Of a stretch of DNA of 64,000 bases, positions 25,906 through 58,089 are shown piece by piece; the first letter of the stretch is position 1; each line of letters begins with the position of its first letter. The notes beneath the pieces were generated by a model. The model was not told the DNA's origin. It was given only the letters and a program-made list of their open reading frames with translations, and did not search any database. Source of the stretch: Eledone cirrhosa (lineage: Eukaryota); the NCBI GenBank assembly GCA_964016885.1, contig OZ024752.1, forward strand, positions 8,990,001 to 9,054,000, given 5' to 3'. The position numbers and the translations under genes are program-made.

Positions 25906-25960
<55 letters not shown>

Positions 25961-32384: not shown

Positions 32385-32463
32385 CAATATGTATATATAC
32401 ATACACATAAATACACAAACACACTATATATACATACACATACACATGAATACACAAACACAC

Positions 32464-32498
<35 letters not shown>

Positions 32499-32570
32499 AC
32501 AAACACACTATATATATATATACATACACATACACATGAATACACAAATACATACACTATATATATATAT
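32385..32570. repeat. Compound (TA)n/(CA)n simple repeat with about three copies of a ~55-70 bp unit
   Basis: Recurrent CACATGAATACACAAACACACTATATA. Confidence 0.85.
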
Positions 32571-32622
32571 CAGGAAAGAAGATTGACATGGTTTGCTATA
32601 CAAAAAAGGTTTTTAATCTTAT

Positions 32623-32730
32623 TGCTGACAATTGTTTCTCTGAACTGGTAGGTCTAGAGATCGCTATTCGCTTGTTTTCACGTTACTCGATCGCCAATAC
32701 AAAATTATAACCAGTCAGTTCTTCGGAGCA
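32623..32730 (-). ncRNA. Variant hammerhead motif with extended stem II
   Basis: TGCT-CCGAAGA-ACTGACTGG..~60 nt..CCAGTTCAGA-GAAA-CAATTGTC-AGCA. Confidence 0.5.
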
Positions 32731-34059
32731 TGCGAGAATGAAGAGAATATACAGGCATGTATGGAATATACAGGCTACTATATGAAGTAGTAATGGCATT
32801 CAGTTAGAACAATAACAACAATTACAACAATACTATTAAATTATTTGAGGAGACCCTGACATTACATTAGGTGGGGGGTATAGTGTATCTAAGATTTCGG
32901 CGTGTAAAACTAACTGACATGAAGCAGAAGTATAAGTTTGGCATGTACGGAGTGTCGTAGGGTGTATTGTATCAATTTTAAAGATAAGCCGGCGTTTACA
33001 GTCTTTCTTTTCATCTTCAATAACATACATGAATGGGACAACACTGTCAAAGCTAAATAGTGGGCGAGTTAATACAGAGGTTAAGGAGGTAATATATATA
33101 TATACACATATACACACGCATGTGTACATAGACACATACATACACATCAATATACACTCATACAAAAATATACATACATGCAAAGAGATAAGCGTGCTGA
33201 TTGTAATTATGGCAAAAGGAAGGTAATGTTACATTGTAGTAGTGATTTGAGAAATTCTTGGATTTAGGATCAAGTGATGGCAGCAGCTGAGAAGGAATAA
33301 GTTTCTGGGTTGATGAGGTACTTACAGACATTTGTGTGGTATAGACCTGTGAAGGCTAGAGTGTACTTAATGAGTATATTTCTGTGGTGATTTATGCAGG
33401 GTAGTGGGTATCCTAGTTTAAAGCTATGTTGTGTTGGTTTGATTCACGGAGGTTTGACTCTTATGAATTTAGTGGCAATTCTGTCTGCAGAAGATAGATC
33501 TTTCTAACTTATTGTAAAGTAGCCTTTTTACATTTTTGAGGATATACATTAGTTCTAGATCACATAGCCCGCAGTGGGACATACCTGTACTATAGGTTTT
33601 AGCAGCCGACAACTTCGACCAGTTAATACTGTAGTTAGTGCTGCTGTCCTTCAGTTCCCATATTTTTTTGGCGAGGTTGTGGAACCCATAAGTGCACGGT
33701 TTTTCATTGAGTGCCTGTGCACATACCATCTTTTTTTAAAAGAACCCGCGGTGGATCCTATGTAATTCCAGGTGGAGTTATCCGAGTTGACCGTGCACAT
33801 GTATACTAGGCTCGAATCGAGACATCTGTTCGCCAATGGGCACCTATCTGGTAGGTGAGAGTTACAGTTTGAGGCGCTATTTTGTGCAGCTTCTACGATA
33901 TCCGTACAGTTCTTATAGATGGCCTCGTGGAGTGGAGTATCCCCTCTTTTATTCCGACAATTTACATCCACTCTAGAAGACAGCAAGGATTTCACCTCTT
34001 CATAGTTTTTTTCTGAAAGTAGTAGAAATAAATACAAATACACATATATAGGAAATGAA

Positions 34060-34263
34060 GGCACATGGCTTAGTGGTTAGTGTGTTCTACTGAAGATCAT
34101 GAGGTTGTGAGTTTGATTCCTGGGGATGTCTTGTCCTTGAGCAAGACACTTTATTACATGATGATCCACTCCACTCAGCTAGCAAAACTGAGTTGTACCA
34201 GTAATACAAAGGGTCAGCCTTGTTAATCTGCTTATCCTTGAGAACTACAATAAAGGTACACAT
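34060..34263 (+). mobile_element. tRNA-derived SINE (representative; one per array unit)
   Basis: A box TGGCTTAGTGG, B-box-like GAGTTTGATTCC, CORE-like TGTCCTTGAGCAAGACACTT. Confidence 0.75.
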
Positions 34264-37200
34264 ATGGGTTGATGAGGTACTTACAGACATTTGTGTGGGA
34301 TAGACCTGTGAAGGCTAGAGTGTACTTAATGAGTATATTTCTGTGGTGATTTATGCAGGGTAGTGGGTATCCTAGTTTAAAGCTATGTTGTGTTGGTTTG
34401 ATTCACGGAGGTTTGACTCTTATGAATTTAGTGGCAATTCTGTCTGCAGAAGATAGATCTTTCTAACTTATTGTAAAGTAGCCTTTTTACATTTTTGAGG
34501 ATATACATTAGTTCTAGATCACATAGCCCGCAGTGGGACATACCTGTACTATAGGTTTTAGCAGCCGACAACTTCGACCAGTTAATACTGTAGTTAGTGC
34601 TGCTGTCCTTCAGTTCCCATATTTTTTTGGCGAGGTTGTGGAACCCATAAGTGCATGGTTTTTCATTGAGTGCCTGTGCACATACCATCTTTTTTTAAAA
34701 GAACCCGCGGTGGATCCTATGTAATTCCAGGTGGAGTTATCCGAGTTGACCGTGCACATGTATACTAGGCTCGAATCGAGACATCTGTTCGCCAATGGGT
34801 ACCTATCTGGTAGGTGAGAGTTACAGTTTGAGGCGCTATTTTGTGCAGCTTCTACACTCCTGTTTAGTACTCTGTTATAAGTGGGTTGTGATATATGCTG
34901 ACCCACCTTAATAGCAGGTTTGTTGATTAACAACTGTGCGATATCCGTACAGTTCTTATAGATGGCCTCGTGGAGTGGAGTATCCCCTCATTTATTCCGA
35001 CAATTTATATCCTCTCTAGAAGACAGCAAGGATTTCACCTCTTCATAGTTTTTTTCTGAAAGTAGTAGAAATAAATACAAATACACATATATAGGAAATG
35101 AAGGCACATGGCTTAGTGGTTAGTGTGTTCTACTGAAGATCATGAGGTTGTGAGTTTGATTCCTGGGGATGTCTTGTCCTTGAGCAAGACACTTTATTAC
35201 ATGATGATCCACTCCACTCAGCTAGCAAAACTGAGTTGTACCAGTAATACAAAGGGTCAGCCTTGTTAATCTGCTTATCCTTGAGAACTACAATAAAGGT
35301 ACACATATGGGTTGATGAGGTACTTACAGACATTTGTGTGGGATAGACCTGTGAAGGCTAGAGTGTACTTAATGAGTATATTTCTGTGGTGATTTATGCA
35401 GGGTAGTGGGTATCCTAGTTTAAAGCTATGTTGTGTTGGTTTGATTCACGGAGGTTTGACTCTTATGAATTTAGTGGCAATTCTGTCTGCAGAAGATAGA
35501 TCTTTCTAACTTATTGTAAAGTAGCCTTTTTACATTTTTGAGGATATACATTAGTTCTAGATCACATAGCCCGCAGTGGGACATACCTGTACTATAGGTT
35601 TTAGCAGCCGACAACTTCGACCAGTTAATACTGTAGTTAGTGCTGCTGTCCTTCAGTTCCCATATTTTTTTGGCGAGGTTGTGGAACCCATAAGTGCACG
35701 GTTTTTCATTGAGTGCCTGTGCACATACCATCTTTTTTTAAAAGAACCCGCGGTGGATCCTATGTAATTCCAGGTGGAGTTATCCGAGTTGACCGTGCAC
35801 ATGTATACTAGGCTCGAATCGAGACATCTGTTCGCCAATGGGCACCTATCTGGTAGGTGAGAGTTACAGTTTGAGGCGCTATTTTGTGCAGCTTCTACGA
35901 TATCCGTACAGTTCTTATAGATGGCCTCGTGGAGTGGAGTATCCCCTCTTTTATTCCGACAATTTACATCCACTCTAGAAGACAGCAAGGATTTCATAGT
36001 TTTTTCTGAAAGTAGTAGAAATAAATACAAATACACATATATAGGAAATGAAGGCACATGGCTTAGTGGTTAGTGTGTTCTACTGAAGATCATGAGGTTG
36101 TGAGTTTGATTCCTGGGGATGTCTTGTCCTTGAGCAAGACACTTTATTACATGATGATCCACTCCACTCAGCTAGCAAAACTGAGTTGTACCAGTAATAC
36201 AAAGGGTCAGCCTTGTTAATCTGCTTATCCTTGAGAACTACAATAAAGGTACACATATGGGTTGATGAGGTACTTACAGACATTTGTGTGGTATAGACCT
36301 GTGAAGGCTAGAGTGTACTTAATGAGTATATTTCTGTGGTGATTTATGCAGGGTAGTGGGTATCCTAGTTTAAAGCTATGTTGTGTTGGTTTGATTCACG
36401 GAGGTTTGACTCTTATGAATTTAGTGGCAATTCTGTCTGCAGAAGATAGATCTTTCTAACTTATTGTAAAGTAGCCTTTTTACATTTTTGAGGATATACA
36501 TTAGTTCTAGATCACATAGCCCGCAGTGGGACATACCTGTACTATAGGTTTTAGCAGCTGACAACTTCGACCAGTTAATACTGTAGTTAGTGCTGCTGTC
36601 CTTCAGTTCCCATATTTTTTTGGCGAGGTTGTGGAACCCATAAGTGCACGGTTTTTCATTGAGTGCCTGTGCACATACCATCTTTTTTTAAAAGAACCCG
36701 CGGTGGATCCTATGTAATTCCAGGTGGAGTTATCCGAGTTGACCGTGCACATGTATACTAGGCTCGAATCGAGACATCTGTTCGCCAATGGGCACCTATC
36801 TGGTAGGTGGGAGTTACAGTTTGAGGCGCTATTTTGTGCAGCTTCTACACTCCTGTTTAGTACTCTGTTATAAGTGGGTTGTGATATATGCTGACCCACC
36901 TTAATAGCAGGTTTGTTGATTAACAACTGTGCGATATCCGTACAGTTCTTATAGATGGCCTCGTGGAGTGGAGTATCCCCTCATTTATTCCGACAATTTA
37001 TATCCTCTCTAGAAGACAGCAAGGATTTCACCTCTTCATAGTTTTTTTCTGAAAGTAGTAGAAATAAATACAAATACACATATATAGGAAATGAAGGCAC
37101 ATGGCTTAGTGGTTAGTGTGTTCTACTGAAGATCATGAGGTTGTGAGTTTGATTCCTGGGGATGTCTTGTCCTTGAGCAAGACACTTTATTACATGATGA

Positions 37201-40200
37201 TCCACTCCACTCAGCTAGCAAAACTGAGTTGTACCAGTAATACAAAGGGTCAGCCTTGTTAATCTGCTTATCCTTGAGAACTACAATAAAGGTACACATA
37301 TGGGTTGATGAGGTACTTACAGACATTTGTGTGGTATAGACCTGTGAAGGCTAGAGTGTACTTAATGAGTATATTTCTGTGGTGATTTATGCAGGGTAGT
37401 GGGTATCCTAGTTTAAAGCTATGTTGTGTTGGTTTGATTCACGGAGGTTTGACTCTTATGAATTTAGTGGCAATTCTGTCTGCAGAAGATAGATCTTTCT
37501 AACTTATTGTAAAGTAGCCTTTTTACATTTTTGAGGATATACATTAGTTCTAGATCACATAGCCCGCAGTGGGACATACCTGTACTATAGGTTTTAGCAG
37601 CCGACAACTTCGACCAGTTAATACTGTAGTTAGTGCTGCTGTCCTTCAGTTCCCATATTTTTTTGGCGAGGTTGTGGAACCCATAAGTGCACGGTTTTTC
37701 ATTGAGTGCCTGTGCACATACCATCTTTTTTTAAAAGAACCCGCGGTGGATCCTATGTAATTCCAGGTGGAGTTATCCGAGTTGACCGTGCACATGTATA
37801 CTAGGCTCGAATCGAGACATCTGTTCGCCAATGGGCACCTATCTGGTAGGTGAGAGTTACAGTTTGAGGCGCTATTTTGTGCAGCTTCTACACTCCTGTT
37901 TAGTACTCTGTTATAAGTGGGTTGTGATATATGCTGACCCACCTTAATAGCAGGTGTGTTGATTAACAACTGTGCGATATCCGTACAGTTCTTATAGATG
38001 GCCTCGTGGAGTGGAGTATCCCCTCTTTTATTCCGACAATTTATATCCTCTCTAGAAGACAGCAAGGATTTCACCTCTTCATAGTTTTTTCTGAAAGTAG
38101 TAGAAATAAATACAAATACACATATATAGGAAATGAAGGCACATGGCTTAGTGGTTAGTGTGTTCTACTGAAGATCATAAGGTTGTGAGTTTGATTCCTG
38201 GGTATGTCTTGTGTCCTTGAGCAAGACACTTTATTACATGATGATCCACTCCACTCAGCTAGCAAAACTGAGTTGTACCAGTAATACAAAGGGTCAGCCT
38301 TGTTAATCTGCTTATCCTTGAGAACTACAATAAAGGTACACATATGGGTTGATGAGGTACTTACAGACATTTGTGTGGGATAGACCTGTGAAGGCTAGAG
38401 TGTACTTAATGAGTATATTTCTGTGGTGATTTATGCAGGGTAGTGGGTATCCTAGTTTAAAGCTATGTTGTGTTGGTTTGATTCACGGAGGTTTGACTCT
38501 TATGAATTTAGTGGCAATTCTGTCTGCAGAAGATAGATCTTTCTAACTTATTGTTAAGTAGCCTTTTTACATTTTTGAGGATATACATTAGTTCTAGATC
38601 ACATAGCCCGCAGTGGGACATACCTGTACTATAGGTTTTAGCAGCCGACAACTTCGACCAGTTAATACTGTAGTTAGTGCTGTATTTTTTTGGCGAGGTT
38701 GTGGAACCCATAAGTGCACGGTTTTTCATTGAGTGCCTGTGCACATACCATCTTTTTTTAAAAGAACCCGCGGTGGATCCTATGTAATTCCAGGTGGAGT
38801 TATCCGAGTTGACCGTGCACATGTATACTAGGCTCGAATCGAGACATCTGTTCGCCAATGGGTACCTATCTGGTAGGTGAGAGTTACAGTTTGAGGCGCT
38901 ATTTTGTGCAGCTTCTACACTCCTGTTTAGTACTCTGTTATAAGTGGGTTGTGATATATGCTGACCCACCTTAATAGCAGGTGCGTTGATTAACAACTGT
39001 GCGATATCCGTACAGTTCTTATAGATGGCCTCGTGGAGTGGAGTATCCCCTCATTTATTCCGACAATTTATATCCTCTCTAGAAGACAGCAAGGATTTCA
39101 CCTCTTCATAGTTTTTTTCTGAAAGTAGTAGAAATAAATACAAATACACATATATAGGAAATGAAGGCACATGGCTTAGTGGTTAGTGTGTTCTACTGAA
39201 GATCATGAGGTTGTGAGTTTGATTCCTGGGGATGTCTTGTCCTTGAGCAAGACACTTTATTACATGATGATCCACTCCACTCAGCTAGCAAAACTGAGTT
39301 GTACCAGTAATACAAAGGGTCAGCCTTGTTAATCTGCTTATCCTTGAGAACTACAATAAAGGTACACATATGGGTTGATGAGGTACTTACAGACATTTGT
39401 GTGGGATAGACCTGTGAAGGCTAGAGTGTACTTAATGAGTATATTTCTGTGGTGATTTATGCAGGGTAGTGGGTATCCTAGTTTAAAGCTATGTTGTGTT
39501 GGTTTGATTCACGGAGGTTTGACTCTTATGAATTTAGTGGCAATTCTGTCTGCAGAAGATAGATCTTTCTAACTTATTGTAAAGTAGCCTTTTTACATTT
39601 TTGAGGATATACATTAGTTCTAGATCACATAGCCCGCAGTGGGACATACCTGTACTATAGGTTTTAGCAGCCGACAACTTCGACCAGTTAATACTGTAGT
39701 TAGTGCTGCTGTCCTTCAGTTCCCATATTTTTTTGGCGAGGTTGTGGAACCCATAAGTGCACGGTTTTTCATTGAGTGCCTGTGCACATACCATCTTTTT
39801 TTAAAAGAACCCGCGGTGGATCCTATGTAATTCCAGGTGGAGTTATCCGAGTTGACCGTGCACATGTATACTAGGCTCGAATCGAGACATCTGTTCGCCA
39901 ATGGGCACCTATCTGGTAGGTGAGAGTTACAGTTTGAGGCGCTATTTTGTGCAGCTTCTACGATATCCGTACAGTTCTTATAGATGGCCTCGTGGAGTGG
40001 AGTATCCCCTCTTTTATTCCGACAATTTACATCCACTCTAGAAGACAGCAAGGATTTCATAGTTTTTTCTGAAAGTAGTAGAAATAAATACAAATACACA
40101 TATATAGGAAATGAAGGCACATGGCTTAGTGGTTAGTGTGTTCTACTGAAGATCATGAGGTTGTGAGTTTGATTCCTGGGGATGTCTTGTCCTTGAGCAA

Positions 40201-43200
40201 GACACTTTATTACATGATGATCCACTCCACTCAGCTAGCAAAACTGAGTTGTACCAGTAATACAAAGGGTCAGCCTTGTTAATCTGCTTATCCTTGAGAA
40301 CTACAATAAAGGTACACATATGGGTTGATGAGGTACTTACAGACATTTGTGTGGTATAGACCTGTGAAGGCTAGAGTGTACTTAATGAGTATATTTCTGT
40401 GGTGATTTATGCAGGGTAGTGGGTATCCTAGTTTAAAGCTATGTTGTGTTGGTTTGATTCACGGAGGTTTGACTCTTATGAATTTAGTGGCAATTCTGTC
40501 TGCAGAAGATAGATCTTTCTAACTTATTGTAAAGTAGCCTTTTTACATTTTTGAGGATATACATTAGTTCTAGATCACATAGCCCGCAGTGGGACATACC
40601 TGTACTATAGGTTTTAGCAGCTGACAACTTCGACCAGTTAATACTGTAGTTAGTGCTGCTGTCCTTCAGTTCCCATATTTTTTTGGCGAGGTTGTGGAAC
40701 CCATAAGTGCACGGTTTTTCATTGAGTGCCTGTGCACATACCATCTTTTTTTAAAAGAACCCGCGGTGGATCCTATGTAATTCCAGGTGGAGTTATCCGA
40801 GTTGACCGTGCACATGTATACTAGGCTCGAATCGAGACATCTGTTCGCCAATGGGCACCTATCTGGTAGGTGGGAGTTACAGTTTGAGGCGCTATTTTGT
40901 GCAGCTTCTACACTCCTGTTTAGTACTCTGTTATAAGTGGGTTGTGATATATGCTGACCCACCTTAATAGCAGGTTTGTTGATTAACAACTGTGCGATAT
41001 CCGTACAGTTCTTATAGATGGCCTCGTGGAGTGGAGTATCCCCTCATTTATTCCGACAATTTATATCCTCTCTAGAAGACAGCAAGGATTTCACCTCTTC
41101 ATAGTTTTTTTCTGAAAGTAGTAGAAATAAATACAAATACACATATATAGGAAATGAAGGCACATGGCTTAGTGGTTAGTGTGTTCTACTGAAGATCATG
41201 AGGTTGTGAGTTTGATTCCTGGGGATGTCTTGTCCTTGAGCAAGACACTTTATTACATGATGATCCACTCCACTCAGCTAGCAAAACTGAGTTGTACCAG
41301 TAATACAAAGGGTCAGCCTTGTTAATCTGCTTATCCTTGAGAACTACAATAAAGGTACACATATGGGTTGATGAGGTACTTACAGACATTTGTGTGGTAT
41401 AGACCTGTGAAGGCTAGAGTGTACTTAATGAGTATATTTCTGTGGTGATTTATGCAGGGTAGTGGGTATCCTAGTTTAAAGCTATGTTGTGTTGGTTTGA
41501 TTCACGGAGGTTTGACTCTTATGAATTTAGTGGCAATTCTGTCTGCAGAAGATAGATCTTTCTAACTTATTGTAAAGTAGCCTTTTTACATTTTTGAGGA
41601 TATACATTAGTTCTAGATCACATAGCCCGCAGTGGGACATACCTGTACTATAGGTTTTAGCAGCCGACAACTTCGACCAGTTAATACTGTAGTTAGTGCT
41701 GCTGTCCTTCAGTTCCCATATTTTTTTGGCGAGGTTGTGGAACCCATAAGTGCACGGTTTTTCATTGAGTGCCTGTGCACATACCATCTTTTTTTAAAAG
41801 AACCCGCGGTGGATCCTATGTAATTCCAGGTGGAGTTATCCGAGTTGACCGTGCACATGTATACTAGGCTCGAATCGAGACATCTGTTCACCAATGGGCA
41901 CCTATCTGGTAGGTGAGAGTTACAGTTTGAGGCGCTATTTTGTGCAGCTTCTACACTCCTGTTTAGTACTCTGTTATAAGTGGGTTGTGATATATGCTGA
42001 CCCACCTTAATAGCAGGTGCGTTGATTAACAACTGTGCGATATCCGTACAGTTCTTATAGATGGCCTCGTGGAGTGGAGTATCCCCTCATTTATTCCGAC
42101 AATTTACATCCACTCTAGAAGACAGCAAGGATTTCACCTCTTCATAGTTTTTTCTGAAAGTAGTAGAAATAAATACAAATACACATATATAGGAAATGAA
42201 GGCACATGGCTTAGTGGTTAGTGTGTTCTACTGAAGATCATGAGGTTGTGAGTTTGATTCCTGGGGATGTCTTGTCCTTGAGCAAGACACTTTATTACAT
42301 GATGATCCACTCCACTCAGCTAGCAAAACTGAGTTGTACCAGTAATACAAAGGGTCAGCCTTGTTAATCTGCTTATCCTTGAGAACTACAATAAAGGTAC
42401 ACATATGGGTTGATGAGGTACTTACAGACATTTGTGTGGTATAGACCTGTGAAGGCTAGAGTGTACTTAATGAGTATATTTCTGTGGTGATTTATGCAGG
42501 GTAGTGGGTATCCTAGTTTAAAGCTATGTTGTGTTGGTTTGATTCACGGAGGTTTGACTCTTATGAATTTAGTGGCAATTCTGTCTGCAGAAGATAGATC
42601 TTTCTAACTTATTGTTAAGTAGCCTTTTTACATTTTTGAGGATATACATTAGTTCTAGATCACATAGCCCGCAGTGGGACATACCTGTACTATAGGTTTT
42701 AGCAGCCGACAACTTCGACCAGTTAATACTGTAGTTAGTGCTGCTGTCCTTCAGTTCCCATATTTTTTTGGCGAGGTTGTGGAACCCATAAGTGCATGGT
42801 TTTTCATTGAGTGCCTGTGCACATACCATCTTTTTTTAAAAGAACCCGCGGTGGATCCTATGTAATTCCAGGTGGAGTTATCCGAGTTGACCGTGCACAT
42901 GTATACTAGGCTCGAATCGAGACATCTGTTCGCCAATGGGCACCTATCTGGTAGGTGAGAGTTACAGTTTGAGGCGCTATTTTGTGCAGCTTCTACACTC
43001 CTGTTTAGTACTCTGTTATAAGTGGGTTGTGATATATGCTGACCCACCTTAATAGCAGGTTTGTTGATTAACAACTGTGCGATATCCGTACAGTTCTTAT
43101 AGATGGCCTCGTGGAGTGGAGTATCCCCTCATTTATTCCGACAATTTATATCCTCTCTAGAAGACAGCAAGGATTTCACCTCTTCATAGTTTTTTTCTGA

Positions 43201-44654
43201 AAGTAGTAGAAATAAATACAAATACACATATATAGGAAATGAAGGCACATGGCTTAGTGGTTAGTGTGTTCTACTGAAGATCATGAGGTTGTGAGTTTGA
43301 TTCCTGGGGATGTCTTGTCCTTGAGCAAGACACTTTATTACATGATGATCCACTCCACTCAGCTAGCAAAACTGAGTTGTACCAGTAATACAAAGGGTCA
43401 GCCTTGTTAATCTGCTTATCCTTGAGAACTACAATAAAGGTACACATATGGGTTGATGAGGTACTTACAGACATTTGTGTGGTATAGACCTGTGAAGGCT
43501 AGAGTGTACTTAATGAGTATATTTCTGTGGTGATTTATGCAGGGTAGTGGGTATCCTAGTTTAAAGCTATGTTGTGTTGGTTTGATTCACGGAGGTTTGA
43601 CTCTTATGAATTTAGTGGCAATTCTGTCTGCAGAAGATAGATCTTTCTAACTTATTGTAAAGTAGCCTTTTTACATTTTTGAGGATATACATTAGTTCTA
43701 GATCACATAGCCCGCAGTGGGACATACCTGTACTATAGGTTTTAGCAGCCGACAACTTCGACCAGTTAATACTGTAGTTAGTGCTGCTGTCCTTCAGTTC
43801 CCATATTTTTTTGGCGAGGTTGTGGAACCCATAAGTGCACGGTTTTTCATTGAGTGCCTGTGCACATACCATCTTTTTTTAAAAGAACCCGCGGTGGATC
43901 CTATGTAATTCCAGGTGGAGTTATCCGAGTTGACCGTGCACATGTATACTAGGCTCGAATCGAGACATCTGTTCGCCAATGGGCACCTATCTGGTAGGTG
44001 GGAGTTACAGTTTGAGGCGCTATTTTGTGCAGCTTCTACACTCCTGTTTAGTACTCTGTTATAAGTGGGTTGTGATATATGCTGACCCACCTTAATAGCA
44101 GGTTTGTTGATTAACAACTGTGCGATATCCGTACAGTTCTTATAGATGGCCTCGTGGAGTGGAGTATCCCCTCATTTATTCCGACAATTTATATCCTCTC
44201 TAGAAGACAGCAAGGATTTCACCTCTTCATAGTTTTTTTCTGAAAGTAGTAGAAATAAATACAAATACACATATATAGGAAATGAAGGCACATGGCTTAG
44301 TGGTTAGTGTGTTCTACTGAAGATCATGAGGTTGTGAGTTTGATTCCTGGGGATGTCTTGTCCTTGAGCAAGACACTTTATTACATGATGATCCACTCCA
44401 CTCAGCTAGCAAAACTGAGTTGTACCAGTAATACAAAGGGTCAGCCTTGTTAATCTGCTTATCCTTGAGAACTACAATAAAGGTACACATATGGGTTGAT
44501 GAGGTACTTACAGACATTTGTGTGGGATAGACCTGTGAAGGCTAGAGTGTACTTAATGAGTATATTTCTGTGGTGATTTATGCAGGGTAGTGGGTATCCT
44601 AGTTTAAAGCTATGTTGTGTTGGTTTGATTCACGGAGGTTTGACTCTTATGAAT

Positions 44655-45317
44655 TTAGTGGCAATTCTGTCTGCAGAAGATAGATCTTTCTAACTTATTG
44701 TTAAGTAGCCTTTTTACATTTTTGAGGATATACATTAGTTCTAGATCACATAGCCCGCAGTGGGACATACCTGTACTATAGGTTTTAGCAGCCGACAACT
44801 TCGACCAGTTAATACTGTAGTTAGTGCTGTATTTTTTTGGCGAGGTTGTGGAACCCATAAGTGCACGGTTTTTCATTGAGTGCCTGTGCACATACCATCT
44901 TTTTTTAAAAGAACCCGCGGTGGATCCTATGTAATTCCAGGTGGAGTTATCCGAGTTGACCGTGCACATGTATACTAGGCTCGAATCGAGACATCTGTTC
45001 GCCAATGGGTACCTATCTGGTAGGTGAGAGTTACAGTTTGAGGCGCTATTTTGTGCAGCTTCTACACTCCTGTTTAGTACTCTGTTATAAGTGGGTTGTG
45101 ATATATGCTGACCCACCTTAATAGCAGGTGCGTTGATTAACAACTGTGCGATATCCGTACAGTTCTTATAGATGGCCTCGTGGAGTGGAGTATCCCCTCT
45201 TTTATTCCGACAATTTACATCCACTCTAGAAGACAGCAAGGATTTCACCTCTTCATAGTTTTTTTCTGAAAGTAGTAGAAATAAATACAAATACACATAT
45301 ATAGGAAATGAAGGCAC
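44655..45317 (-). CDS. Chimeric ankyrin repeat-GIY-YIG ORF (220 aa); expression unknown
   Basis: DVNCRNKRGDTPLHEAI..IAQLLIN fused in frame to PLANRCL..LVYMCTV..YIGST..FKKRWY.H..CGLCDLE; the ATG lies in SINE/intron-derived sequence. Confidence 0.5.
   Translation of the reverse strand: MPSFPIYVYLYLFLLLSEKNYEEVKSLLSSRVDVNCRNKRGDTPLHEAIYKNCTDIAQLLINAPAIKVGQHISQPTYNRVLNRSVEAAQNSASNCNSHLPDRYPLANRCLDSSLVYMCTVNSDNSTWNYIGSTAGSFKKRWYVHRHSMKNRALMGSTTSPKKYSTNYSINWSKLSAAKTYSTGMSHCGLCDLELMYILKNVKRLLNNKLERSIFCRQNCH
45117..45265 (-). other. Captured 149-nt host ankyrin-repeat exon (representative copy)
   Basis: Preceded by TTTCTACTACTTTCAG acceptor, followed by AAG/GTGGGT donor; encodes one ANK repeat. Confidence 0.75.
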
Positions 45318-48300
45318 ATGGCTTAGTGGTTAGTGTGTTCTACTGAAGATCATGAGGTTGTGAGTTTGATTCCTGGGGATGTCTTGTTCTTGAGCAAGAC
45401 ACTTTATTACATGATGATCCACTCCACTCAGCTAGCAAAACTGAGTTGTACCAGTAATATCAGCCTTGTTAATCTGCTTATCCTTGAGAACTACAATAAA
45501 GGTACACATATGGGTTGATGAGGTACTTACAGACACTTGTGTGGTATAGACCTGTGAAGGCTAGAGTGTACTTAATGAGTATATTTCTGTGGTGATTTAT
45601 GCAGGGTAGTGGGTATCCTAGTTTAAAGCTATGTTGTGTTGGTTTGATTCACGGAGGTTTGACTCTTATGAATTTAGTGGCAATTCTGTCTGCAGAAGAT
45701 AGATCTTTCTAACTTATTGTTAAGTAGCCTTTTTACATTTTTGAGGATATACATTAGTTCTAGATCACATAGCCCGCAGTGGGACATACCTGTACTATAG
45801 GTTTTAGCAGCCGACAACTTCGACCAGTTAATACTGTAGTTAGTGCTGCTGTCCTTCAGTTCCCATATTTTTTTGGCGAGGTTGTGGAACCCATAAGTGC
45901 ACGGTTTTTCATTGAGTGCCTGTGCACATACCATCTTTTTTTAAAAGAACCCGCGGTGGATCCTATGTAATTCCAGGTGGAGTTATCCGAGTTGACCGTG
46001 CACATGTATACTAGGCTCGAATCGAGACATCTGTTCACCAATGGGCACCTATCTGGTAGGTGAGAGTTACAGTTTGAGGCGCTATTTTGTGCAGCTTCTA
46101 CACTCCTGTTTAGTACTCTGTTATAAGTGGGTTGTGATATATGCTGACCCACCTTAATAGCAGGTGCGTTGATTAACAACTGTGCGATATCCGTACAGTT
46201 CTTATAGATGGCCTCGTGGAGTGGAGTATCCCCTCATTTATTCCGACAATTTACATCCACTCTAGAAGACAGCAAGGATTTCACCTCTTCATAGTTTTTT
46301 CTGAAAGTAGTAGAAATAAATACAAATACACATATATAGGAAATGAAGGCACATGGCTTAGTGGTTAGTGTGTTCTACTGAAGATCATGAGGTTGTGAGT
46401 TTGATTCCTGGGGATGTCTTGTCCTTGAGCAAGACACTTTATTACATGATGATCCACTCCACTCAGCTAGCAAAACTGAGTTGTACCAGTAATACAAAGG
46501 GTCAGCCTTGTTAATCTGCTTATCCTTGAGAACTACAATAAAGGTACACATATGGGTTGATGAGGTACTTACAGACATTTGTGTGGTATAGACCTGTGAA
46601 GGCTAGAGTGTACTTAATGAGTATATTTCTGTGGTGATTTATGCAGGGTAGTGGGTATCCTAGTTTAAAGCTATGTTGTGTTGGTTTGATTCACGGAGGT
46701 TTGACTCTTATGAATTTAGTGGCAATTCTGTCTGCAGAAGATAGATCTTTCTAACTTATTGTAAAGTAGCCTTTTTACATTTTTGAGGATATACATTAGT
46801 TCTAGATCACATAGCCCGCAGTGGGACATACCTGTACTATAGGTTTTAGCAGCCGACAACTTCGACCAGTTAATACTGTAGTTAGTGCTGCTGTCCTTCA
46901 GTTCCCATATTTTTTTGGCGAGGTTGTGGAACCCATAAGTGCATGGTTTTTCATTGAGTGCCTGTGCACATACCATCTTTTTTTAAAAGAACCCGCGGTG
47001 GATCCTATGTAATTCCAGGTGGAGTTATCCGAGTTGACCGTGCACATGTATACTAGGCTCGAATCGAGACATCTGTTCGCCAATGGGCACCTATCTGGTA
47101 GGTGAGAGTTACAGTTTGAGGCGCTATTTTGTGCAGCTTCTACACTCCTGTTTAGTACTCTGTTATAAGTGGGTTGTGATATATGCTGACCCACCTTAAT
47201 AGCAGGTTTGTTGATTAACAACTGTGCGATATCCGTACAGTTCTTATAGATGGCCTCGTGGAGTGGAGTATCCCCTCATTTATTCCGACAATTTATATCC
47301 TCTCTAGAAGACAGCAAGGATTTCACCTCTTCATAGTTTTTTTCTGAAAGTAGTAGAAATAAATACAAATACACATATATAGGAAATGAAGGCACATGGC
47401 TTAGTGGTTAGTGTGTTCTACTGAAGATCATGAGGTTGTGAGTTTGATTCCTGGGGATGTCTTGTCCTTGAGCAAGACACTTTATTACATGATGATCCAC
47501 TCCACTCAGCTAGCAAAACTGAGTTGTACCAGTAATACAAAGGGTCAGCCTTGTTAATCTGCTTATCCTTGAGAACTACAATAAAGGTACACATATGGGT
47601 TGATGAGGTACTTACAGACATTTGTGTGGTATAGACCTGTGAAGGCTAGAGTGTACTTAATGAGTATATTTCTGTGGTGATTTATGCAGGGTAGTGGGTA
47701 TCCTAGTTTAAAGCTATGTTGTGTTGGTTTGATTCACGGAGGTTTGACTCTTATGAATTTAGTGGCAATTCTGTCTGCAGAAGATAGATCTTTCTAACTT
47801 ATTGTAAAGTAGCCTTTTTACATTTTTGAGGATATACATTAGTTCTAGATCACATAGCCCGCAGTGGGACATACCTGTACTATAGGTTTTAGCAGCCGAC
47901 AACTTCGACCAGTTAATACTGTAGTTAGTGCTGCTGTCCTTCAGTTCCCATATTTTTTTGGCGAGGTTGTGGAACCCATAAGTGCACGGTTTTTCATTGA
48001 GTGCCTGTGCACATACCATCTTTTTTTAAAAGAACCCGCGGTGGATCCTATGTAATTCCAGGTGGAGTTATCCGAGTTGACCGTGCACATGTATACTAGG
48101 CTCGAATCGAGACATCTGTTCGCCAATGGGCACCTATCTGGTAGGTGGGAGTTACAGTTTGAGGCGCTATTTTGTGCAGCTTCTACACTCCTGTTTAGTA
48201 CTCTGTTATAAGTGGGTTGTGATATATGCTGACCCACCTTAATAGCAGGTTTGTTGATTAACAACTGTGCGATATCCGTACAGTTCTTATAGATGGCCTC

Positions 48301-48801
48301 GTGGAGTGGAGTATCCCCTCATTTATTCCGACAATTTATATCCTCTCTAGAAGACAGCAAGGATTTCACCTCTTCATAGTTTTTTTCTGAAAGTAGTAGA
48401 AATAAATACAAATACACATATATAGGAAATGAAGGCACATGGCTTAGTGGTTAGTGTGTTCTACTGAAGATCATGAGGTTGTGAGTTTGATTCCTGGGGA
48501 TGTCTTGTCCTTGAGCAAGACACTTTATTACATGATGATCCACTCCACTCAGCTAGCAAAACTGAGTTGTACCAGTAATACAAAGGGTCAGCCTTGTTAA
48601 TCTGCTTATCCTTGAGAACTACAATAAAGGTACACATATGGGTTGATGAGGTACTTACAGACATTTGTGTGGGATAGACCTGTGAAGGCTAGAGTGTACT
48701 TAATGAGTATATTTCTGTGGTGATTTATGCAGGGTAGTGGGTATCCTAGTTTAAAGCTATGTTGTGTTGGTTTGATTCACGGAGGTTTGACTCTTATGAA
48801 T

Positions 48802-49464
48802 TTAGTGGCAATTCTGTCTGCAGAAGATAGATCTTTCTAACTTATTGTTAAGTAGCCTTTTTACATTTTTGAGGATATACATTAGTTCTAGATCACATAG
48901 CCCGCAGTGGGACATACCTGTACTATAGGTTTTAGCAGCCGACAACTTCGACCAGTTAATACTGTAGTTAGTGCTGTATTTTTTTGGCGAGGTTGTGGAA
49001 CCCATAAGTGCACGGTTTTTCATTGAGTGCCTGTGCACATACCATCTTTTTTTAAAAGAACCCGCGGTGGATCCTATGTAATTCCAGGTGGAGTTATCCG
49101 AGTTGACCGTGCACATGTATACTAGGCTCGAATCGAGACATCTGTTCGCCAATGGGTACCTATCTGGTAGGTGAGAGTTACAGTTTGAGGCGCTATTTTG
49201 TGCAGCTTCTACACTCCTGTTTAGTACTCTGTTATAAGTGGGTTGTGATATATGCTGACCCACCTTAATAGCAGGTGCGTTGATTAACAACTGTGCGATA
49301 TCCGTACAGTTCTTATAGATGGCCTCGTGGAGTGGAGTATCCCCTCTTTTATTCCGACAATTTACATCCACTCTAGAAGACAGCAAGGATTTCACCTCTT
49401 CATAGTTTTTTTCTGAAAGTAGTAGAAATAAATACAAATACACATATATAGGAAATGAAGGCAC
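48802..49464 (-). CDS. Second identical ankyrin-GIY-YIG fusion ORF (220 aa)
   Basis: Same translation as 44655-45317, offset 4147 bp. Confidence 0.5.
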   Translation of the reverse strand: MPSFPIYVYLYLFLLLSEKNYEEVKSLLSSRVDVNCRNKRGDTPLHEAIYKNCTDIAQLLINAPAIKVGQHISQPTYNRVLNRSVEAAQNSASNCNSHLPDRYPLANRCLDSSLVYMCTVNSDNSTWNYIGSTAGSFKKRWYVHRHSMKNRALMGSTTSPKKYSTNYSINWSKLSAAKTYSTGMSHCGLCDLELMYILKNVKRLLNNKLERSIFCRQNCH

Positions 49465-52400
49465 ATGGCTTAGTGGTTAGTGTGTTCTACTGAAGATCAT
49501 GAGGTTGTGAGTTTGATTCCTGGGGATGTCTTGTTCTTGAGCAAGACACTTTATTACATGATGATCCACTCCACTCAGCTAGCAAAACTGAGTTGTACCA
49601 GTAATATCAGCCTTGTTAATCTGCTTATCCTTGAGAACTACAATAAAGGTACACATATGGGTTGATGAGGTACTTACAGACACTTGTGTGGTATAGACCT
49701 GTGAAGGCTAGAGTGTACTTAATGAGTATATTTCTGTGGTGATTTATGCAGGGTAGTGGGTATCCTAGTTTAAAGCTATGTTGTGTTGGTTTGATTCACG
49801 GAGGTTTGACTCTTATGAATTTAGTGGCAATTCTGTCTGCAGAAGATAGATCTTTCTAACTTATTGTTAAGTAGCCTTTTTACATTTTTGAGGATATACA
49901 TTAGTTCTAGATCACATAGCCCGCAGTGGGACATACCTGTACTATAGGTTTTAGCAGCCGACAACTTCGACCAGTTAATACTGTAGTTAGTGCTGCTGTC
50001 CTTCAGTTCCCATATTTTTTTGGCGAGGTTGTGGAACCCATAAGTGCACGGTTTTTCATTGAGTGCCTGTGCACATACCATCTTTTTTTAAAAGAACCCG
50101 CGGTGGATCCTATGTAATTCCAGGTGGAGTTATCCGAGTTGACCGTGCACATGTATACTAGGCTCGAATCGAGACATCTGTTCACCAATGGGCACCTATC
50201 TGGTAGGTGAGAGTTACAGTTTGAGGCGCTATTTTGTGCAGCTTCTACACTCCTGTTTAGTACTCTGTTATAAGTGGGTTGTGATATATGCTGACCCACC
50301 TTAATAGCAGGTGCGTTGATTAACAACTGTGCGATATCCGTACAGTTCTTATAGATGGCCTCGTGGAGTGGAGTATCCCCTCATTTATTCCGACAATTTA
50401 CATCCACTCTAGAAGACAGCAAGGATTTCACCTCTTCATAGTTTTTTCTGAAAGTAGTAGAAATAAATACAAATACACATATATAGGAAATGAAGGCACA
50501 TGGCTTAGTGGTTAGTGTGTTCTACTGAAGATCATGAGGTTGTGAGTTTGATTCCTGGGGATGTCTTGTCCTTGAGCAAGACACTTTATTACATGATGAT
50601 CCACTCCACTCAGCTAGCAAAACTGAGTTGTACCAGTAATACAAAGGGTCAGCCTTGTTAATCTGCTTATCCTTGAGAACTACAATAAAGGTACACATAT
50701 GGGTTGATGAGGTACTTACAGACATTTGTGTGGTATAGACTTGTGAAGGCTAGAGTGTACTTAATGAGTATATTTCTGTGGTGATTTATGCAGGGTAGTG
50801 GGTATCCTAGTTTAAAGCTATGTTGTGTTGGTTTGATTCACGGAGGTTTGACTCTTATGAATTTAGTGGCAATTCTGTCTGCAGAAGATAGATCTTTCTA
50901 ACTTATTGTAAAGTAGCCTTTTTACATTTTTGAGGATATACATTAGTTCTAGATCACATAGCCCGCAGTGGGACATACCTGTACTATAGGTTTTAGCAGC
51001 CGACAACTTCGACCAGTTAATACTGTAGTTAGTGCTGCTGTCCTTCAGTTCCCATATTTTTTTGGCGAGGTTGTGGAACCCATAAGTGCATGGTTTTTCA
51101 TTGAGTGCCTGTGCACATACCATCTTTTTTTAAAAGAACCCGCGGTGGATCCTATGTAATTCCAGGTGGAGTTATCCGAGTTGACCGTGCACATGTATAC
51201 TAGGCTCGAATCGAGACATCTGTTCGCCAATGGGCACCTATCTGGTAGGTGAGAGTTACAGTTTGAGGCGCTATTTTGTGCAGCTTCTACACTCCTGTTT
51301 AGTACTCTGTTATAAGTGGGTTGTGATATATGCTGACCCACCTTAATAGCAGGTTTGTTGATTAACAACTGTGCGATATCCGTACAGTTCTTATAGATGG
51401 CCTCGTGGAGTGGAGTATCCCCTCATTTATTCCGACAATTTATATCCTCTCTAGAAGACAGCAAGGATTTCACCTCTTCATAGTTTTTTTCTGAAAGTAG
51501 TAGAAATAAATACAAATACACATATATAGGAAATGAAGGCACATGGCTTAGTGGTTAGTGTGTTCTACTGAAGATCATGAGGTTGTGAGTTTGATTCCTG
51601 GGGATGTCTTGTCCTTGAGCAAGACACTTTATTACATGATGATCCACTCCACTCAGCTAGCAAAACTGAGTTGTACCAGTAATACAAAGGGTCAGCCTTG
51701 TTAATCTGCTTATCCTTGAGAACTACAATAAAGGTACACATATGGGTTGATGAGGTACTTACAGACATTTGTGTGGTATAGACCTGTGAAGGCTAGAGTG
51801 TACTTAATGAGTATATTTCTGTGGTGATTTATGCAGGGTAGTGGGTATCCTAGTTTAAAGCTATGTTGTGTTGGTTTGATTCACGGAGGTTTGACTCTTA
51901 TGAATTTAGTGGCAATTCTGTCTGCAGAAGATAGATCTTTCTAACTTATTGTAAAGTAGCCTTTTTACATTTTTGAGGATATACATTAGTTCTAGATCAC
52001 ATAGCCCGCAGTGGGACATACCTGTACTATAGGTTTTAGCAGCCGACAACTTCGACCAGTTAATACTGTAGTTAGTGCTGCTGTCCTTCAGTTCCCATAT
52101 TTTTTTGGCGAGGTTGTGGAACCCATAAGTGCACGGTTTTTCATTGAGTGCCTGTGCACATACCATCTTTTTTTAAAAGAACCCGCGGTGGATCCTATGT
52201 AATTCCAGGTGGAGTTATCCGAGTTGACCGTGCACATGTATACTAGGCTCGAATCGAGACATCTGTTCGCCAATGGGCACCTATCTGGTAGGTGGGAGTT
52301 ACAGTTTGAGGCGCTATTTTGTGCAGCTTCTACACTCCTGTTTAGTACTCTGTTATAAGTGGGTTGTGATATATGCTGACCCACCTTAATAGCAGGTTTG

Positions 52401-55400
52401 TTGATTAACAACTGTGCGATATCCGTACAGTTCTTATAGATGGCCTCGTGGAGTGGAGTATCCCCTCATTTATTCCGACAATTTATATCCTCTCTAGAAG
52501 ACAGCAAGGATTTCACCTCTTCATAGTTTTTTTCTGAAAGTAGTAGAAATAAATACAAATACACATATATAGGAAATGAAGGCACATGGCTTAGTGGTTA
52601 GTGTGTTCTACTGAAGATCATGAGGTTGTGAGTTTGATTCCTGGGGATGTCTTGTCCTTGAGCAAGACACTTTATTACATGATGATCCACTCCACTCAGC
52701 TAGCAAAACTGAGTTGTACCAGTAATACAAAGGGTCAGCCTTGTTAATCTGCTTATCCTTGAGAACTACAATAAAGGTACACATATGGGTTGATGAGGTA
52801 CTTACAGACATTTGTGTGGGATAGACCTGTGAAGGCTAGAGTGTACTTAATGAGTATATTTCTGTGGTGATTTATGCAGGGTAGTGGGTATCCTAGTTTA
52901 AAGCTATGTTGTGTTGGTTTGATTCACGGAGGTTTGACTCTTATGAATTTAGTGGCAATTCTGTCTGCAGAAGATAGATCTTTCTAACTTATTGTTAAGT
53001 AGCCTTTTTACATTTTTGAGGATATACATTAGTTCTAGATCACATAGCCCGCAGTGGGACATACCTGTACTATAGGTTTTAGCAGCCGACAACTTCGACC
53101 AGTTAATACTGTAGTTAGTGCTGCTGTCCTTCAGTTCCCATATTTTTTTGGCGAGGTTGTGGAACCCATAAAGGCACGGTTTTTCATTGAGTGCCTGTGC
53201 ACATACCATCTTTTTTTAAAAGAACCCGCGGTGGATCCTATGTAATTCCAGGTGGAGTTATCCGAGTTGACCGTGCACATGTATACTAGGCTCGAATCGA
53301 GACATCTGTTCGCCAATGGGTACCTATCTGGTAGGTGAGAGTTACAGTTTGAGGCGCTATTTTGTGCAGCTTCTACACTCCTGTTTAGTATTCTGTTATA
53401 AGTGGGTTGTGATATATGCTGACCCACCTTAATAGCAGGTGCGTTGATTAACAACTGTGCGATATCCGTACAGTTCTTATAGATGGCCTCGTGGAGTGGA
53501 GTATCCCCTCTTTTATTCCGACAATTTACATCCACTCTAGAAGACAGCAAGGATTTCACCTCTTCATAGTTTTTTTCTGAAAGTAGTAGAAATAAATACA
53601 AATACACATATATAGGAAATGAAGGCACATGGCTTAGTGGTTAGTGTGTTCTACTGAAGATCATGAGGTTGTGAGTTTGATTCCTGGGGATGTCTTGTTC
53701 TTGAGCAAGACACTTTATTACATGATGATCCACTCCACTCAGCTAGCAAAACTGAGTTGTACCAGTAATACAAAGGGTCAGCCTTGTTAATCTGCTTATC
53801 CTTGAGAACTACAATAAAGGTACACATATGGGTTGATGAGGTACTTACAGACACTTGTGTGGTATAGACCTGTGAAGGCTAGAGTGTACTTAATGAGTAT
53901 ATTTCTGTGGTGATTTATGCAGGGTAGTGGGTATCCTAGTTTAAAGCTATGTTGTGTTGGTTTGATTCACGGAGGTTTGACTCTTATGAATTTAGTGGCA
54001 ATTCTGTCTGCAGAAGATAGATCTTTCTAACTTATTGTTAAGTAGCCTTTTTACATTTTTGAGGATATACATTAGTTCTAGATCACATAGCCCGCAGTGG
54101 GACATACCTGTACTATAGGTTTTAGCAGCCGACAACTTCGACCAGTTAATACTGTAGTTAGTGCTGCTGTCCTTCAGTTCCCATATTTTTTTGGCGAGGT
54201 TGTGGAACCCATAAGTGCACGGTTTTTCATTGAGTGCCTGTGCACATACCATCTTTTTTTAAAAAAACCCGCGGTGGATCCTATGTAATTCCAGGTGGAG
54301 TTATCCGAGTTGACCGTGCACATGCATACTAGGCTCGAATCGAGACATCTGTTCACCAATGGGCACCTATCTGGTAGGTGGGAGTTACAGTTTGAGGCGC
54401 TATTTTGTGCAGCTTCTACACTCCTGTTTAGTACTCTGTTATAAGTGGGTTGTGATATATGCTGACCCACCTTAATAGCAGGTTTGTTGATTAACAACTG
54501 TGCGATATCCGTACAGTTCTTATAGATGGCCTCGTGGAGTGGAGTATCCCCTCTTTTATTCCGACAATTTACATCCACTCTAGAAGACAGCAAGGATTTC
54601 ACCTCTTCATAGTTTTTTTCTGAAAGTAGTAGAAATAAATACAAATACACATATATAGGAAATGAAGGCACATGGCTTAGTGGTTAGTGTGTTCTACTGA
54701 AGATCATGAGGTTGTGAGTTTGATTCCTGGGGATGTCTTGTTCTTGAGCAAGACACTTTATTACATGATGATCCACTCCACTCAGCTAGCAAAACTGAGT
54801 TGTACCAGTAATACAAAGGGTCAGCCTTGTTAATCTGCTTATCCTTGAGAACTACAATAAAGGTACACATATGGGTTGATGAGGTACTTACAGACACTTG
54901 TGTGGTATAGACCTGTGAAGGCTAGAGTGTACTTAATGAGTATATTTCTGTGGTGATTTATGCAGGGTAGTGGGTATCCTAGTTTAAAGCTATGTTGTGT
55001 TGGTTTGATTCACGGAGGTTTGACTCTTATGAATTTAGTGGCAATTCTGTCTGCAGAAGATAGATCTTTCTAACTTATTGTTAAGTAGCCTTTTTACATT
55101 TTTGAGGATATACATTAGTTCTAGATCACATAGCCCGCAGTGGGACATACCTGTACTATAGGTTTTAGCAGCCGACAACTTCGACCAGTTAATACTGTAG
55201 TTAGTGCTGCTGTCCTTCAGTTCCCATATTTTTTTGGCGAGGTTGTGGAACCCATAAGTGCACGGTTTTTCATTGAGTGCCTGTGCACATACCATCTTTT
55301 TTTAAAAGAACCCGCGGTGGATCCTATGTAATTCCAGGTGGAGTTATCCGAGTTGACCGTGCACATGTATACTAGGCTCGAATCGAGACATCTGTTCACC

Positions 55401-58089
55401 AATGGGCACCTATCTGGTAGGTGAGAGTTACAGTTTGAGGCGCTATTTTGTGCAGCTTCTACACTCCTGTTTAGTACTCTGTTATAAGTGGGTTGTGATA
55501 TATGCTGACCCACCTTAATAGCAGGTGTGTTGATTAACAACTGTGCGATATCCGTACAGTTCTTATAGATGGCCTCGTGGAGTGGAGTATCCCCTCTTTT
55601 ATTCCGACAATTTATATCCTCTCTAGAAGACAGCAAGGATTTCACCTCTTCATAGTTTTTTCTGAAAGTAGTAGAAATAAATACAAATACACATATATAG
55701 GAAATGAAGGCACATGGCTTAGTGGTTAGTGTGTTCTACTGAAGATCATAAGGTTGTGAGTTTGATTCCTGGGTATGTCTTGTGTCCTTGAGCAAGACAC
55801 TTTATTACATGATGATCCACTCCACTCAGCTAGCAAAACTGAGTTGTACCAGTAATACAAAGGGTCAGCCTTGTTAATCTGCTTATCCTTGAGAACTACA
55901 ATAAAGGTACACATATGGGTTGATGAGGTACTTACAGACATTTGTGTGGGATAGACCTGTGAAGGCTAGAGTGTACTTAATGAGTATATTTCTGTGGTGA
56001 TTTATGCAGGGTAGTGGGTATCCTAGTTTAAAGCTATGTTGTGTTGGTTTGATTCACGGAGGTTTGACTCTTATGAATTTAGTGGCAATTCTGTCTGCAG
56101 AAGATAGATCTTTCTAACTTATTGTTAAGTAGCCTTTTTACATTTTTGAGGATATACATTAGTTCTAGATCACATAGCCCGCAGTGGGACATACCTGTAC
56201 TATAGGTTTTAGCAGCCGACAACTTCGACCAGTTAATACTGTAGTTAGTGCTGCTGTCCTTCAGTTCCCATATTTTTTTGGCGAGGTTGTGGAACCCATA
56301 AGTGCACGGTTTTTCATTGAGTGCCTGTGCACATACCATCTTTTTTTAAAAGAACCCGCGGTGGATCCTATGTAATTCCAGGTGGAGTTATCCGAGTTGA
56401 CCGTTCACATGTATACTAGGCTCGAATCGAGACATCTGTTCGCCAATGGGCACCTATCTGGTAGGTGATAGTTACAGTTTGAGGCGCTATTTTGTGCAGC
56501 TTCTACGATACCCGTACAGTTCTTATAGATGGCCTCGTGGAGTGGAGTATCCCCTCTTTTATTCCGACAATTTACATCCACTCTAGAAGACAGCAAGGAT
56601 TTCACCTCTTCATAGTTTTTTCTGAAAGTAGTAAAAATAAATACAAATACACATATATAGGAAATGAAGGCACATGGCTTAGTGGTTAGTGTGTTCTACT
56701 GAAGATCATAAGGTTGTGAGTTTGATTCCTGGGGATGTCTTGTGTCCTTGAGCAAGACACTTTATTACATGATGATCCACTCCACTCAGCTAGCAAAACT
56801 GAGTTGTACCAGTAATACAAAGGGTCAGCCTTGTTAATCTGCTTATCCTTGAGAACTACAATAAAGGTACACATATGGGTTGATGAGGTACTTACAGACA
56901 TTTGTGTGGTATAGACCTGTGAAGGCTAGAGTGTACTTAATGAGTATATTTCTGTGGTGATTTATGCAGGGTAGTGGGTATCCTAGTTTAAAGCTATGTT
57001 GTGTTGGTTTGATTCACGGAGGTTTGACTCTTATTAATTTAGTGGCAATTCTGTCAGCTGAAGATTGATCTTTCTAACTTATTGTTAAGTAGCCTTTTTA
57101 CATTTTTGAGGATATACATTAGTTCTAGATCACATAGCCCGCAGTGGGACATACCTGTACTATAGGTTTTAGCAGCCGACAACTTCGACCAGTTAATACT
57201 GTAGTTAGTGCTGCTGTCCTTCAGTTCCCATATTTTTTTGGCGAGGTTGTGGAACCCATAAGTGCACGGTTTTTCATTGAGTGCCTGTGCACATACCATC
57301 TTTTTTTAAAAGAACCCGCGGTGGATCCTATGTAATTCCAGGTGGAGTTATCCGAGTTGACCGTGCACATGTATACTAGGCTCGAATCGAGACATCTGTT
57401 CACCAATGGGCACCTATCTGGTAGGTGAGAGTTACAGTTTGAGGCGCTATTTTGTGCAGCTTCTACACTCCTGTTTAGTACTCTGTTATAAGTGGGTTGT
57501 GATATATGCTGACCCACCTTAATAGCAGGTGCGTTGATTAACAACTGTGCGATATCCGTACAGTTCTTATAGATGGCCTCGTGGAGTGGAGTATCCCCTC
57601 TTTTATTCCGACAATTTACATCCACTCCAGAAGACAGCAAGGATTTCACCTCTTCATAGTTTTTTCTGAAAGTAGTAGAAATAAATACAATTACACATAT
57701 ATAGGAAATGAAGGCACATGGCTTAGTGGTTAGTGTGTTCTACTGAAGATCATAAGGTTGTGAGTTTGATTCCTGGGGATGTCTTGTGTCCTTGAGCAAG
57801 ACACTTTATTACATGATGATCCACTCCACTCAGCTAGCAAAACTGAGTTGTACCAGTAATACAAAGGGTCATCCTTCTTAATCTGCTTATCCTTGAGAAC
57901 TACAATAAAGGTACACATTCATGTCTGTAAAGTGGTTGGTGATAAGAAGGGCATCCAGACCAGGATACTGGAATAGCCTAGCATCCTCATCTAGGAGAAT
58001 CAACTGATACATTAGTAAGGCCTAGTGATGGTGAGGCTGAGATGCTGAAAGAGCCAAGCACCTTCACCGAGGAGCATCAAGTGACACAT

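Follow-up and report, generated by a model that had tools for sequence, protein, structure and literature searches.

Why does a host ankyrin (ANK) exon, joined to part of a retrotransposon, stand 24 times in a row at one locus, and does such an array encode protein, act as a source of antisense RNA against the genes from which the exon came, or do nothing at all? The window, a stretch of 64,000 nucleotides (C12:8,990,001-9,054,000, in a genome of 3.0 Gb), had been described in an earlier note as holding a 24-fold amplified chimera with one SINE per unit. Self-comparison bears this out: 24 head-to-tail units fill 33306-57917 on the minus strand, each about 1,043 bp long (range 950-1,044 bp), with an intact SINE A box on the plus strand in 24/24. 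TRF failed to detect the array, whose period is above 500. On the minus strand each unit runs, in the order that had been claimed, from an antisense SINE through an intron with its 3' splice site, the ANK exon (Pfam Ank_4, E=2e-9) and GTGGGT into a Penelope linker and endonuclease.

33306..57917, minus strand: tandem array, 408 bp of host and 636 bp of Penelope-like element (PLE) sequence per unit, one junction type
57719..57917, plus strand: SINE of unit 1, A box TGGCTTAGTGG, B box GTTTGATTC
57518..57665, minus strand: ANK exon of unit 1, 148 nt, equivalent to exon 2 of the donor genes and 84-92% identical to them
56874..57509, minus strand: PLE linker, broken GIY-YIG-type endonuclease and start of the 3' UTR of unit 1

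Some details of that description needed amending. An exon of 149 nt is found in 14/24 units, where an extra A at the acceptor shifts the splice phase; the native donor exon measures 148 nt, as it does in 6/24 units. The succession of PLE linker, GIY-YIG and 3' UTR holds as an order, but the endonuclease is broken in 24/24 units and the 3' UTR of each unit amounts to only ~150 nt, the other ~740 bp being single-copy at 33305-32565.

Units differ from one another by a mean of 7.8 substitutions per pair, spread over 37 variable columns that form structured haplotypes; seven pairs are identical, and a 4-unit higher-order repeat spans units 5-16 threefold. Such repetition might have been over-expanded by the assembler, and among the contigs listed none spans the whole stretch, yet that the array is largely an assembly artefact is highly improbable, given both the structured haplotypes and the depths in a genomic-like sequencing run (X2), in which the array-type contig reaches 210, close to the 229 of one unit together with all donors, and depth rises to 472 where array-type and donor contigs overlap. 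Because of these depths we take the array to be multi-copy in the reads, roughly 14 copies by ratio, depth being no true copy number. The array is real, but it is not 24 genes. The ANK exon is in frame with the linker, and units 9 and 13 keep a frame of 201 codons, which would suit a nascent family of ANK-GIY-YIG nuclease genes, as the note had also proposed. The chance of this is negligible, because every endonuclease copy carries two deletions, of 1 nt and 2 nt (24/24 units; 19/30 dispersed copies of the element are open to the normal end), and the two long frames lack six residues and the C-terminus. A TGA stop lies inside the exon in 13/24 units, the splice phase is shifted in 14, an 84-nt deletion removes the exon end and the GT donor in 4/24, and within the unit there is no start codon or upstream exon. 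An intact fused ANK-nuclease reading frame was sought in all 24 units and found in none.

The carrier element and the capture

Where the PLE half of the unit came from is answered by its dispersed copies, of which we fetched the best 30 of 41 listed matches (3884 candidates). Past the unit end, 30/30 run on into the single-copy sequence 33305-32565, and upstream most of them extend into a reverse transcriptase (RT); being continuous on both sides, they place the array within one full-length PLE copy. The enclosing element, its RT at 58092-60016 and the extent of the captured piece to 58091 are points absent from the earlier note.

32565..60016, minus strand: full-length PLE with C-terminal endonuclease, holding the whole array; dispersed copies match both sides
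58092..60016, minus strand: RT half, frameshifted near 59010
57510..58091, minus strand: captured genomic ANK-gene fragment, 582 bp, delimited by comparison with dispersed copies and donors
32565..33305, minus strand: single-copy remainder of the element's 3' UTR

The element ends at a TA/TG microsatellite on both sides, and its 5' point, 60016, is the start of 2/4 long dispersed copies; no direct pLTR was found at the 5' end of the array-bearing copy. A 601-aa uninterrupted RT-to-EN frame in one dispersed copy (L125) gives, by its sequence, the single open reading frame with RT and C-terminal GIY-YIG endonuclease, the latter named by motif: a Pfam scan returned no GIY-YIG match for it, and the label is owed to a VY...YIG motif and to continuity with RT in dispersed copies. 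A protein search with the RT gave no named reference among 13 matches. To the extent that they are described in one partly available source, EN+ PLEs of the Neptune/Nematis type share the succession of RT, Cys-rich linker and C-terminal endonuclease, as well as dispersed loci with adjacent inverted truncated copies and microsatellite flanks (PMC8557442). Unlike those elements as described there, ours, tentatively likened to them, has one Cys only between VY and YIG, and no hammerhead was found in its 3' end (PMC8557442). The only Rfam hammerheads, at 31688 and 61487, belong to another repeat that flanks the element. That repeat, present as two copies 89% identical (31642-32393 and 61441-62196, minus strand) on either side of the PLE and with two further partial matches near 25200-25900, is probably a pLTR or retrozyme of another PLE family.

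Measured against dispersed copies, the RT-endonuclease linker lost 8 nt and received 582 bp in their place, comprising SINE, intron, 148-nt ANK exon and splice donor; the breakpoints show microhomology of AC on the left and, after one mismatch, of CATATA on the right. In X2 and in both RAD runs (X5 and X6) the uninterrupted form of the linker appears as a 582-base skip; the RAD reads were too shallow over the array's junctions to reveal it in further individuals. Over 591 bp, the first nine donors aligned are 93-96% identical to the captured piece and share its SINE, its intron and both splice sites, which upholds the earlier view that genomic or unspliced host sequence was taken up; the SINE of the array units was inherited from the donor intron. 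The tandem junction itself has 1 nt of microhomology. The array's junction patterns match the genome 20 and 23 times, always in the array on C12, so the chimera was not mobilised; a mobilised chimeric element, with junctions outside the array, is ruled out. The RT diverges by 1.0% (15/1469) from the column-majority of dispersed copies and the endonuclease by 4-8 of about 600 positions from the family's commonest letters, and since each lies ~1% from the family, insertion, capture and amplification are all young and close in time.

We posit that the element, whose insertion is plainly visible, first entered a one-strand cluster of TE/EVE fragments and then took up intron-containing host DNA, the uptake being recorded in microhomology at both ends and the 8-nt loss. 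The route may have been template switching, either during gap repair or by the RT acting on a pre-mRNA, two possibilities that are not separable here. One non-homologous tandem duplication of a 1,044-bp piece and, later, unequal exchange leading to the 4-unit higher-order repeat would plausibly account for the structure that we observe. As far as a partly available account of Pack-TIRs and Ssk-FB4 goes, these too are single-locus internal captures that show breakpoint microhomology and a short deletion, such as gap filling would leave; Pack-TIRs are carried by a TIR DNA transposon, unlike the PLE carrier here, whose donors lie on other contigs, and the product here, unlike Ssk-FB4, is non-coding (PMC8277862). 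Penelope captures in Adineta vaga likewise include intron-containing host DNA carried by a PLE and an insertion between RT and endonuclease, and in the portion of that work to hand, whole genes were moved between pLTRs or in-frame Asn-rich inserts were kept; unlike them, the present capture stayed in place and was amplified in tandem (PMC3846280).

The donor genes and sequence exchange

The donor of the exon was sought, as had been recommended, by comparing the exon plus flank with the genome for genes that have the same intronic SINE, and such donors were found. The search gave 38 matches: 24 in the array and 14 elsewhere, among them 12 donors with an intact exon (seven on C27, two on C18, two on C26 and one on C9), a processed copy on C10 and an old degenerate copy on C1.

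C27 13.0-15.1 Mb (L063/L064, L080-L085), C26 23.56-23.58 Mb, C18 12.60-12.63 Mb and C9 18.19 Mb: ANK(-RING) donor family

In the C26 and C18 genes a short ANK exon, the donor exon, a longer ANK exon and a zf-C3HC4_3 RING exon follow one another in frame, with 1/4 RING matches above the Pfam cutoff. The processed copy (L075, C10:48,627,6xx) joins exon 2 to exon 3 and contains a stop; it corroborates the splice donor and implies that the family is transcribed in the germline. MIB-type ANK-RING ligases, too, combine ANK repeats with a C3HC4_3 RING at the C-terminus; the C27 donor clade differs from them in that its fetched DNA yielded no RING. We take the donor genes to resemble both these ligases and rapidly evolving ubiquitin-ligase substrate adaptors such as nematode F-box and MATH-BTB proteins. 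In protein and atlas searches neither the donor exon nor the RT had a close relative that is named; the repeats may be octopus-like.

The family varies where it is coding. Among six C27 paralogs, 0-3/430 upstream intron sites differ, versus up to 13/148 exon sites, with indels in loops; over two exons, 71 nonsynonymous changes at 373 sites stand against 2 synonymous changes at 116 (Fisher p=3e-7, a count that ignores recombination), and the introns of the same six have 24 changes in 745 sites. Amino-acid changes are thus ~11-fold in excess, concentrated in the hairpin and first helix, positions that presumably form the ankyrin binding face, and judged by these counts the donor genes are under very strong diversifying selection. 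The array follows the same pattern: its exon is 84-92% and its intron 95-98% identical to donors, with 12-24 exon differences from each donor versus 10-20 of 430 in the intron, and the array exon is, by its sequence, another such hypervariable allele. The exact donor allele is absent from the assembly (best match 94% over 216 nt, 38/38 candidates scored); an intron tree groups the array with C26:23560k (support 80/92, not starred). The ANK(-RING) family may be of more interest than the array.

One haplotype, GAG-GAT-ATA at two sites, occurs in 12/24 units and in exactly one gene, C27:13735872, which also has the array's A at the second base of codon 29 and whose intron differs by 1-2 changes in 430 from those of sister genes without GAG-GAT-ATA. 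For it to stand in both places, array and family must have recombined, or both must have drawn on a third source. The array might on this evidence be a reservoir of silent cassettes that trades short tracts with hypervariable ANK genes by gene conversion and feeds their diversity, the shared haplotype beside a near-identical intron being what such trade would leave. We think this very unlikely: a single tract is involved, it could have moved in either direction, a third allele missing from the assembly might have supplied both, and the array stores little diversity, since its units hardly differ at the hypervariable codons.

Cluster context, possible transcription and possible silencing

What surrounds the array bears on whether it could act in trans.

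1..64000, mostly minus strand: middle of a ~130-kb cluster (about C12:8,974,000-9,105,000) of TE and parvovirus-like fragments

With a custom library built from 24 minus-strand ORFs of the window and 5 from other loci, 30/34 cluster elements lie on the minus strand (binomial p=6e-6, the borders having been set after seeing the data); with the same library, two 80-kb control regions gave 6+/2-, the donor surroundings 16+/18- and the flank beyond 9.105 Mb 6+/4-. In a library-free strand test on all 87 ORFs of >=95 aa that remained after a complexity filter, Pfam matches were found in 18/61 minus-strand versus 0/26 plus-strand ORFs (Fisher p=0.001), those on the minus strand including Helitrons, hAT, Tc5/DDE and Gypsy gag, besides three NS1 ORFs of parvoviral type and two PLA2 ORFs of VP1 type. 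To the 4/34 plus-strand exceptions is added an NS1 fragment at 12966-13281. SINE matches were absent from C12:8964.2-9109.6 kb (145 kb) outside the masked array; the 80-kb controls had 8 in one and none in the other (C12:15.0 Mb). The neighbourhood has features of its own. Parvovirus-like endogenous fragments, with NS1 and PLA2-bearing capsid-type ORFs of up to 551 aa, are concentrated in the cluster (5537-7645, minus; 12966-13281, plus; L095, L078, L096-L098), and PDB searches with two such ORFs gave nothing significant. A large Helitron-like element with a UCH-like fragment and frames of 1168 and 711 aa lies at L079:2543-9240 (minus); young tandem duplications of ~6-kb units, 97-98% identical, occupy C12:9,126,800-9,155,300 (L102-L105); a 2-kb duplication at C12:8,988,799-8,993,169 is 99.5% identical; and minisatellites are found at C12:8.90-8.94 Mb.

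Dense TE/EVE fragments in nearly all one orientation, that of the ANK exon as well, are thus a feature of this locus. A one-strand arrangement of TEs is the signature of a uni-strand piRNA cluster such as flamenco, and the pattern here would fit one read from the plus strand, antisense to the exon. Promoters for plus-strand RNA had also been looked for in the SINEs themselves, whose A and B boxes were proposed to drive Pol III read-through into the ANK exon of the next unit. The A box is intact in all units, as this would require, but the B box deviates, having T where we take the consensus to have C, and runs of 4-7 T, seven in all, are spread from +411 to +775, beginning ~420 nt downstream. 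All seven precede the next ANK exon, which starts at about +793 to +843, so read-through fails to reach it and at most RNA antisense to the 3' part of the PLE would result; together with the deviating B box this makes the proposal extremely improbable, and we set it aside.

Transcription of the locus is suggested by a sequencing run (X1) that is unlabelled and not recorded as RNA, perhaps from the same individual as X2. We judge X1 RNA-like because it assembles into 88 Mb of contigs and has an exon/intron depth ratio above 100: its exon bin reaches 7514 against 26-52 in intron contigs, versus 286 against 229-472 in X2. In X1 a 384-nt contig of depth 7, which carries a variant of units 5, 9, 13, 19 and 23, spans the exon/PLE junction (57279-57662), a 159-nt piece is identical to the RT of the array-bearing copy, and the endonuclease contigs listed are of array type without gaps, whereas in genomic-like X2 dispersed copies dominate. 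This strand-less, unlabelled run suggests that the array locus is transcribed at a low level in preference to dispersed copies. Depths in X1 are 500-7500 for donors, 5-12 for array contigs and 4-12 for the RT part; no 24-fold dosage is visible, because array contigs are no deeper than the RT part, and donors are not silenced in this sample.

The one-strand context and the RNA-like run lend weight to the suggestion that the array is a source of antisense RNA, while its small-RNA output stays putative. By analogy with known clusters we lean towards the array lying in a plus-strand piRNA-cluster precursor that yields antisense small RNAs against the transposon family and the ankyrin genes. That it produces piRNAs at all is probable; that donor genes are measurably repressed is possible, with the odds slightly against it; and that selection drove the amplification we doubt. 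In the sequence of events proposed above, transcription of the locus, for which that single unlabelled run without strand speaks, would be followed by processing into piRNAs and a damping of donor mRNAs. Of 121 28-mers in the unit-1 exon, 29-55 match each of ten donors at <=2 mismatches, versus 13-37/121 in later units, whose match to donors is worse; perfect 28-mers number 0-6/121.

The main rival, the surviving half of the suggestion that the array is a young gene family or satellite, is a neutral young satellite: a single complex repair would have produced both the capture and the initial duplication, unequal exchange would have let the number of copies drift, and such RNA as is made would be a by-product with no effect on donors. 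We rate it as somewhat unlikely. True substitution columns in the exon number 7 of 34 within the array, no notable enrichment of variants; each of the seven creates a stop or changes an amino acid, and apart from states shared with donors none brings the exon closer to them. These columns fit neutrality, as do the worse fit of later units, the lack of a dosage effect in X1 and a region prone to tandem amplification where no host exon is involved (8.90-8.94, 8.989 and 9.127-9.155 Mb). Against it, the sole large tandem array in the cluster is the one whose unit holds a host exon, an argument made post hoc, and the locus seems to be transcribed in preference to dispersed copies.

Parallels and meaning

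The antisense reading has its closest parallels in petrel-pirate, Su(Ste)-Stellate and AT-chX of Drosophila, where, in the portion of the source available, gene-derived sequence was likewise duplicated locally into more than 20 non-coding copies that lie among TEs and at no other locus, with ~90% identity to host genes of a young family (PMC8168559). The array has 84-92% in the exon and 95-98% in the intron. For petrel that portion gives >20 local copies with 91-94% identity and antisense piRNAs (PMC8168559). Many local non-coding copies of a gene sequence, absent elsewhere, are likewise what we find here. Differences from petrel and Su(Ste), as that source presents them, are that one exon was captured inside a retrotransposon and that the setting is a flamenco-like one-strand cluster in place of a Y/X repeat locus (PMC8168559). 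The anatomy would thus be petrel/Su(Ste)-like, built by a Pack-TIR-like capture in a Penelope element within a putative piRNA cluster. Literature searches, mostly of open-access papers and main texts, found no report of this case.

The fullest version of the silencing account strikes us as unlikely: in it, an exon from a hypervariable family of ANK(-RING) ubiquitin ligases engaged in an arms race came with a retrotransposon trapped in a piRNA cluster, its 24-fold amplification was selected for germline silencing of the family, and exchange with the targets continues. If it were true, the selected silencing array would be a suppressor of the Su(Ste)/petrel kind found beyond Drosophila; a neutral array would be no more than a common type of satellite derived from a TE. 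The donor family is notable in itself, since introns that hardly differ, next to hypervariable binding surfaces, suggest conflict of an immune or intragenomic kind, and because the target family can now be named, it becomes directly testable whether piRNAs control host genes in this animal. Breakpoints at base resolution show one way in which a host exon, as part of a retrotransposon, can come to lie in a putative piRNA cluster and be amplified there.
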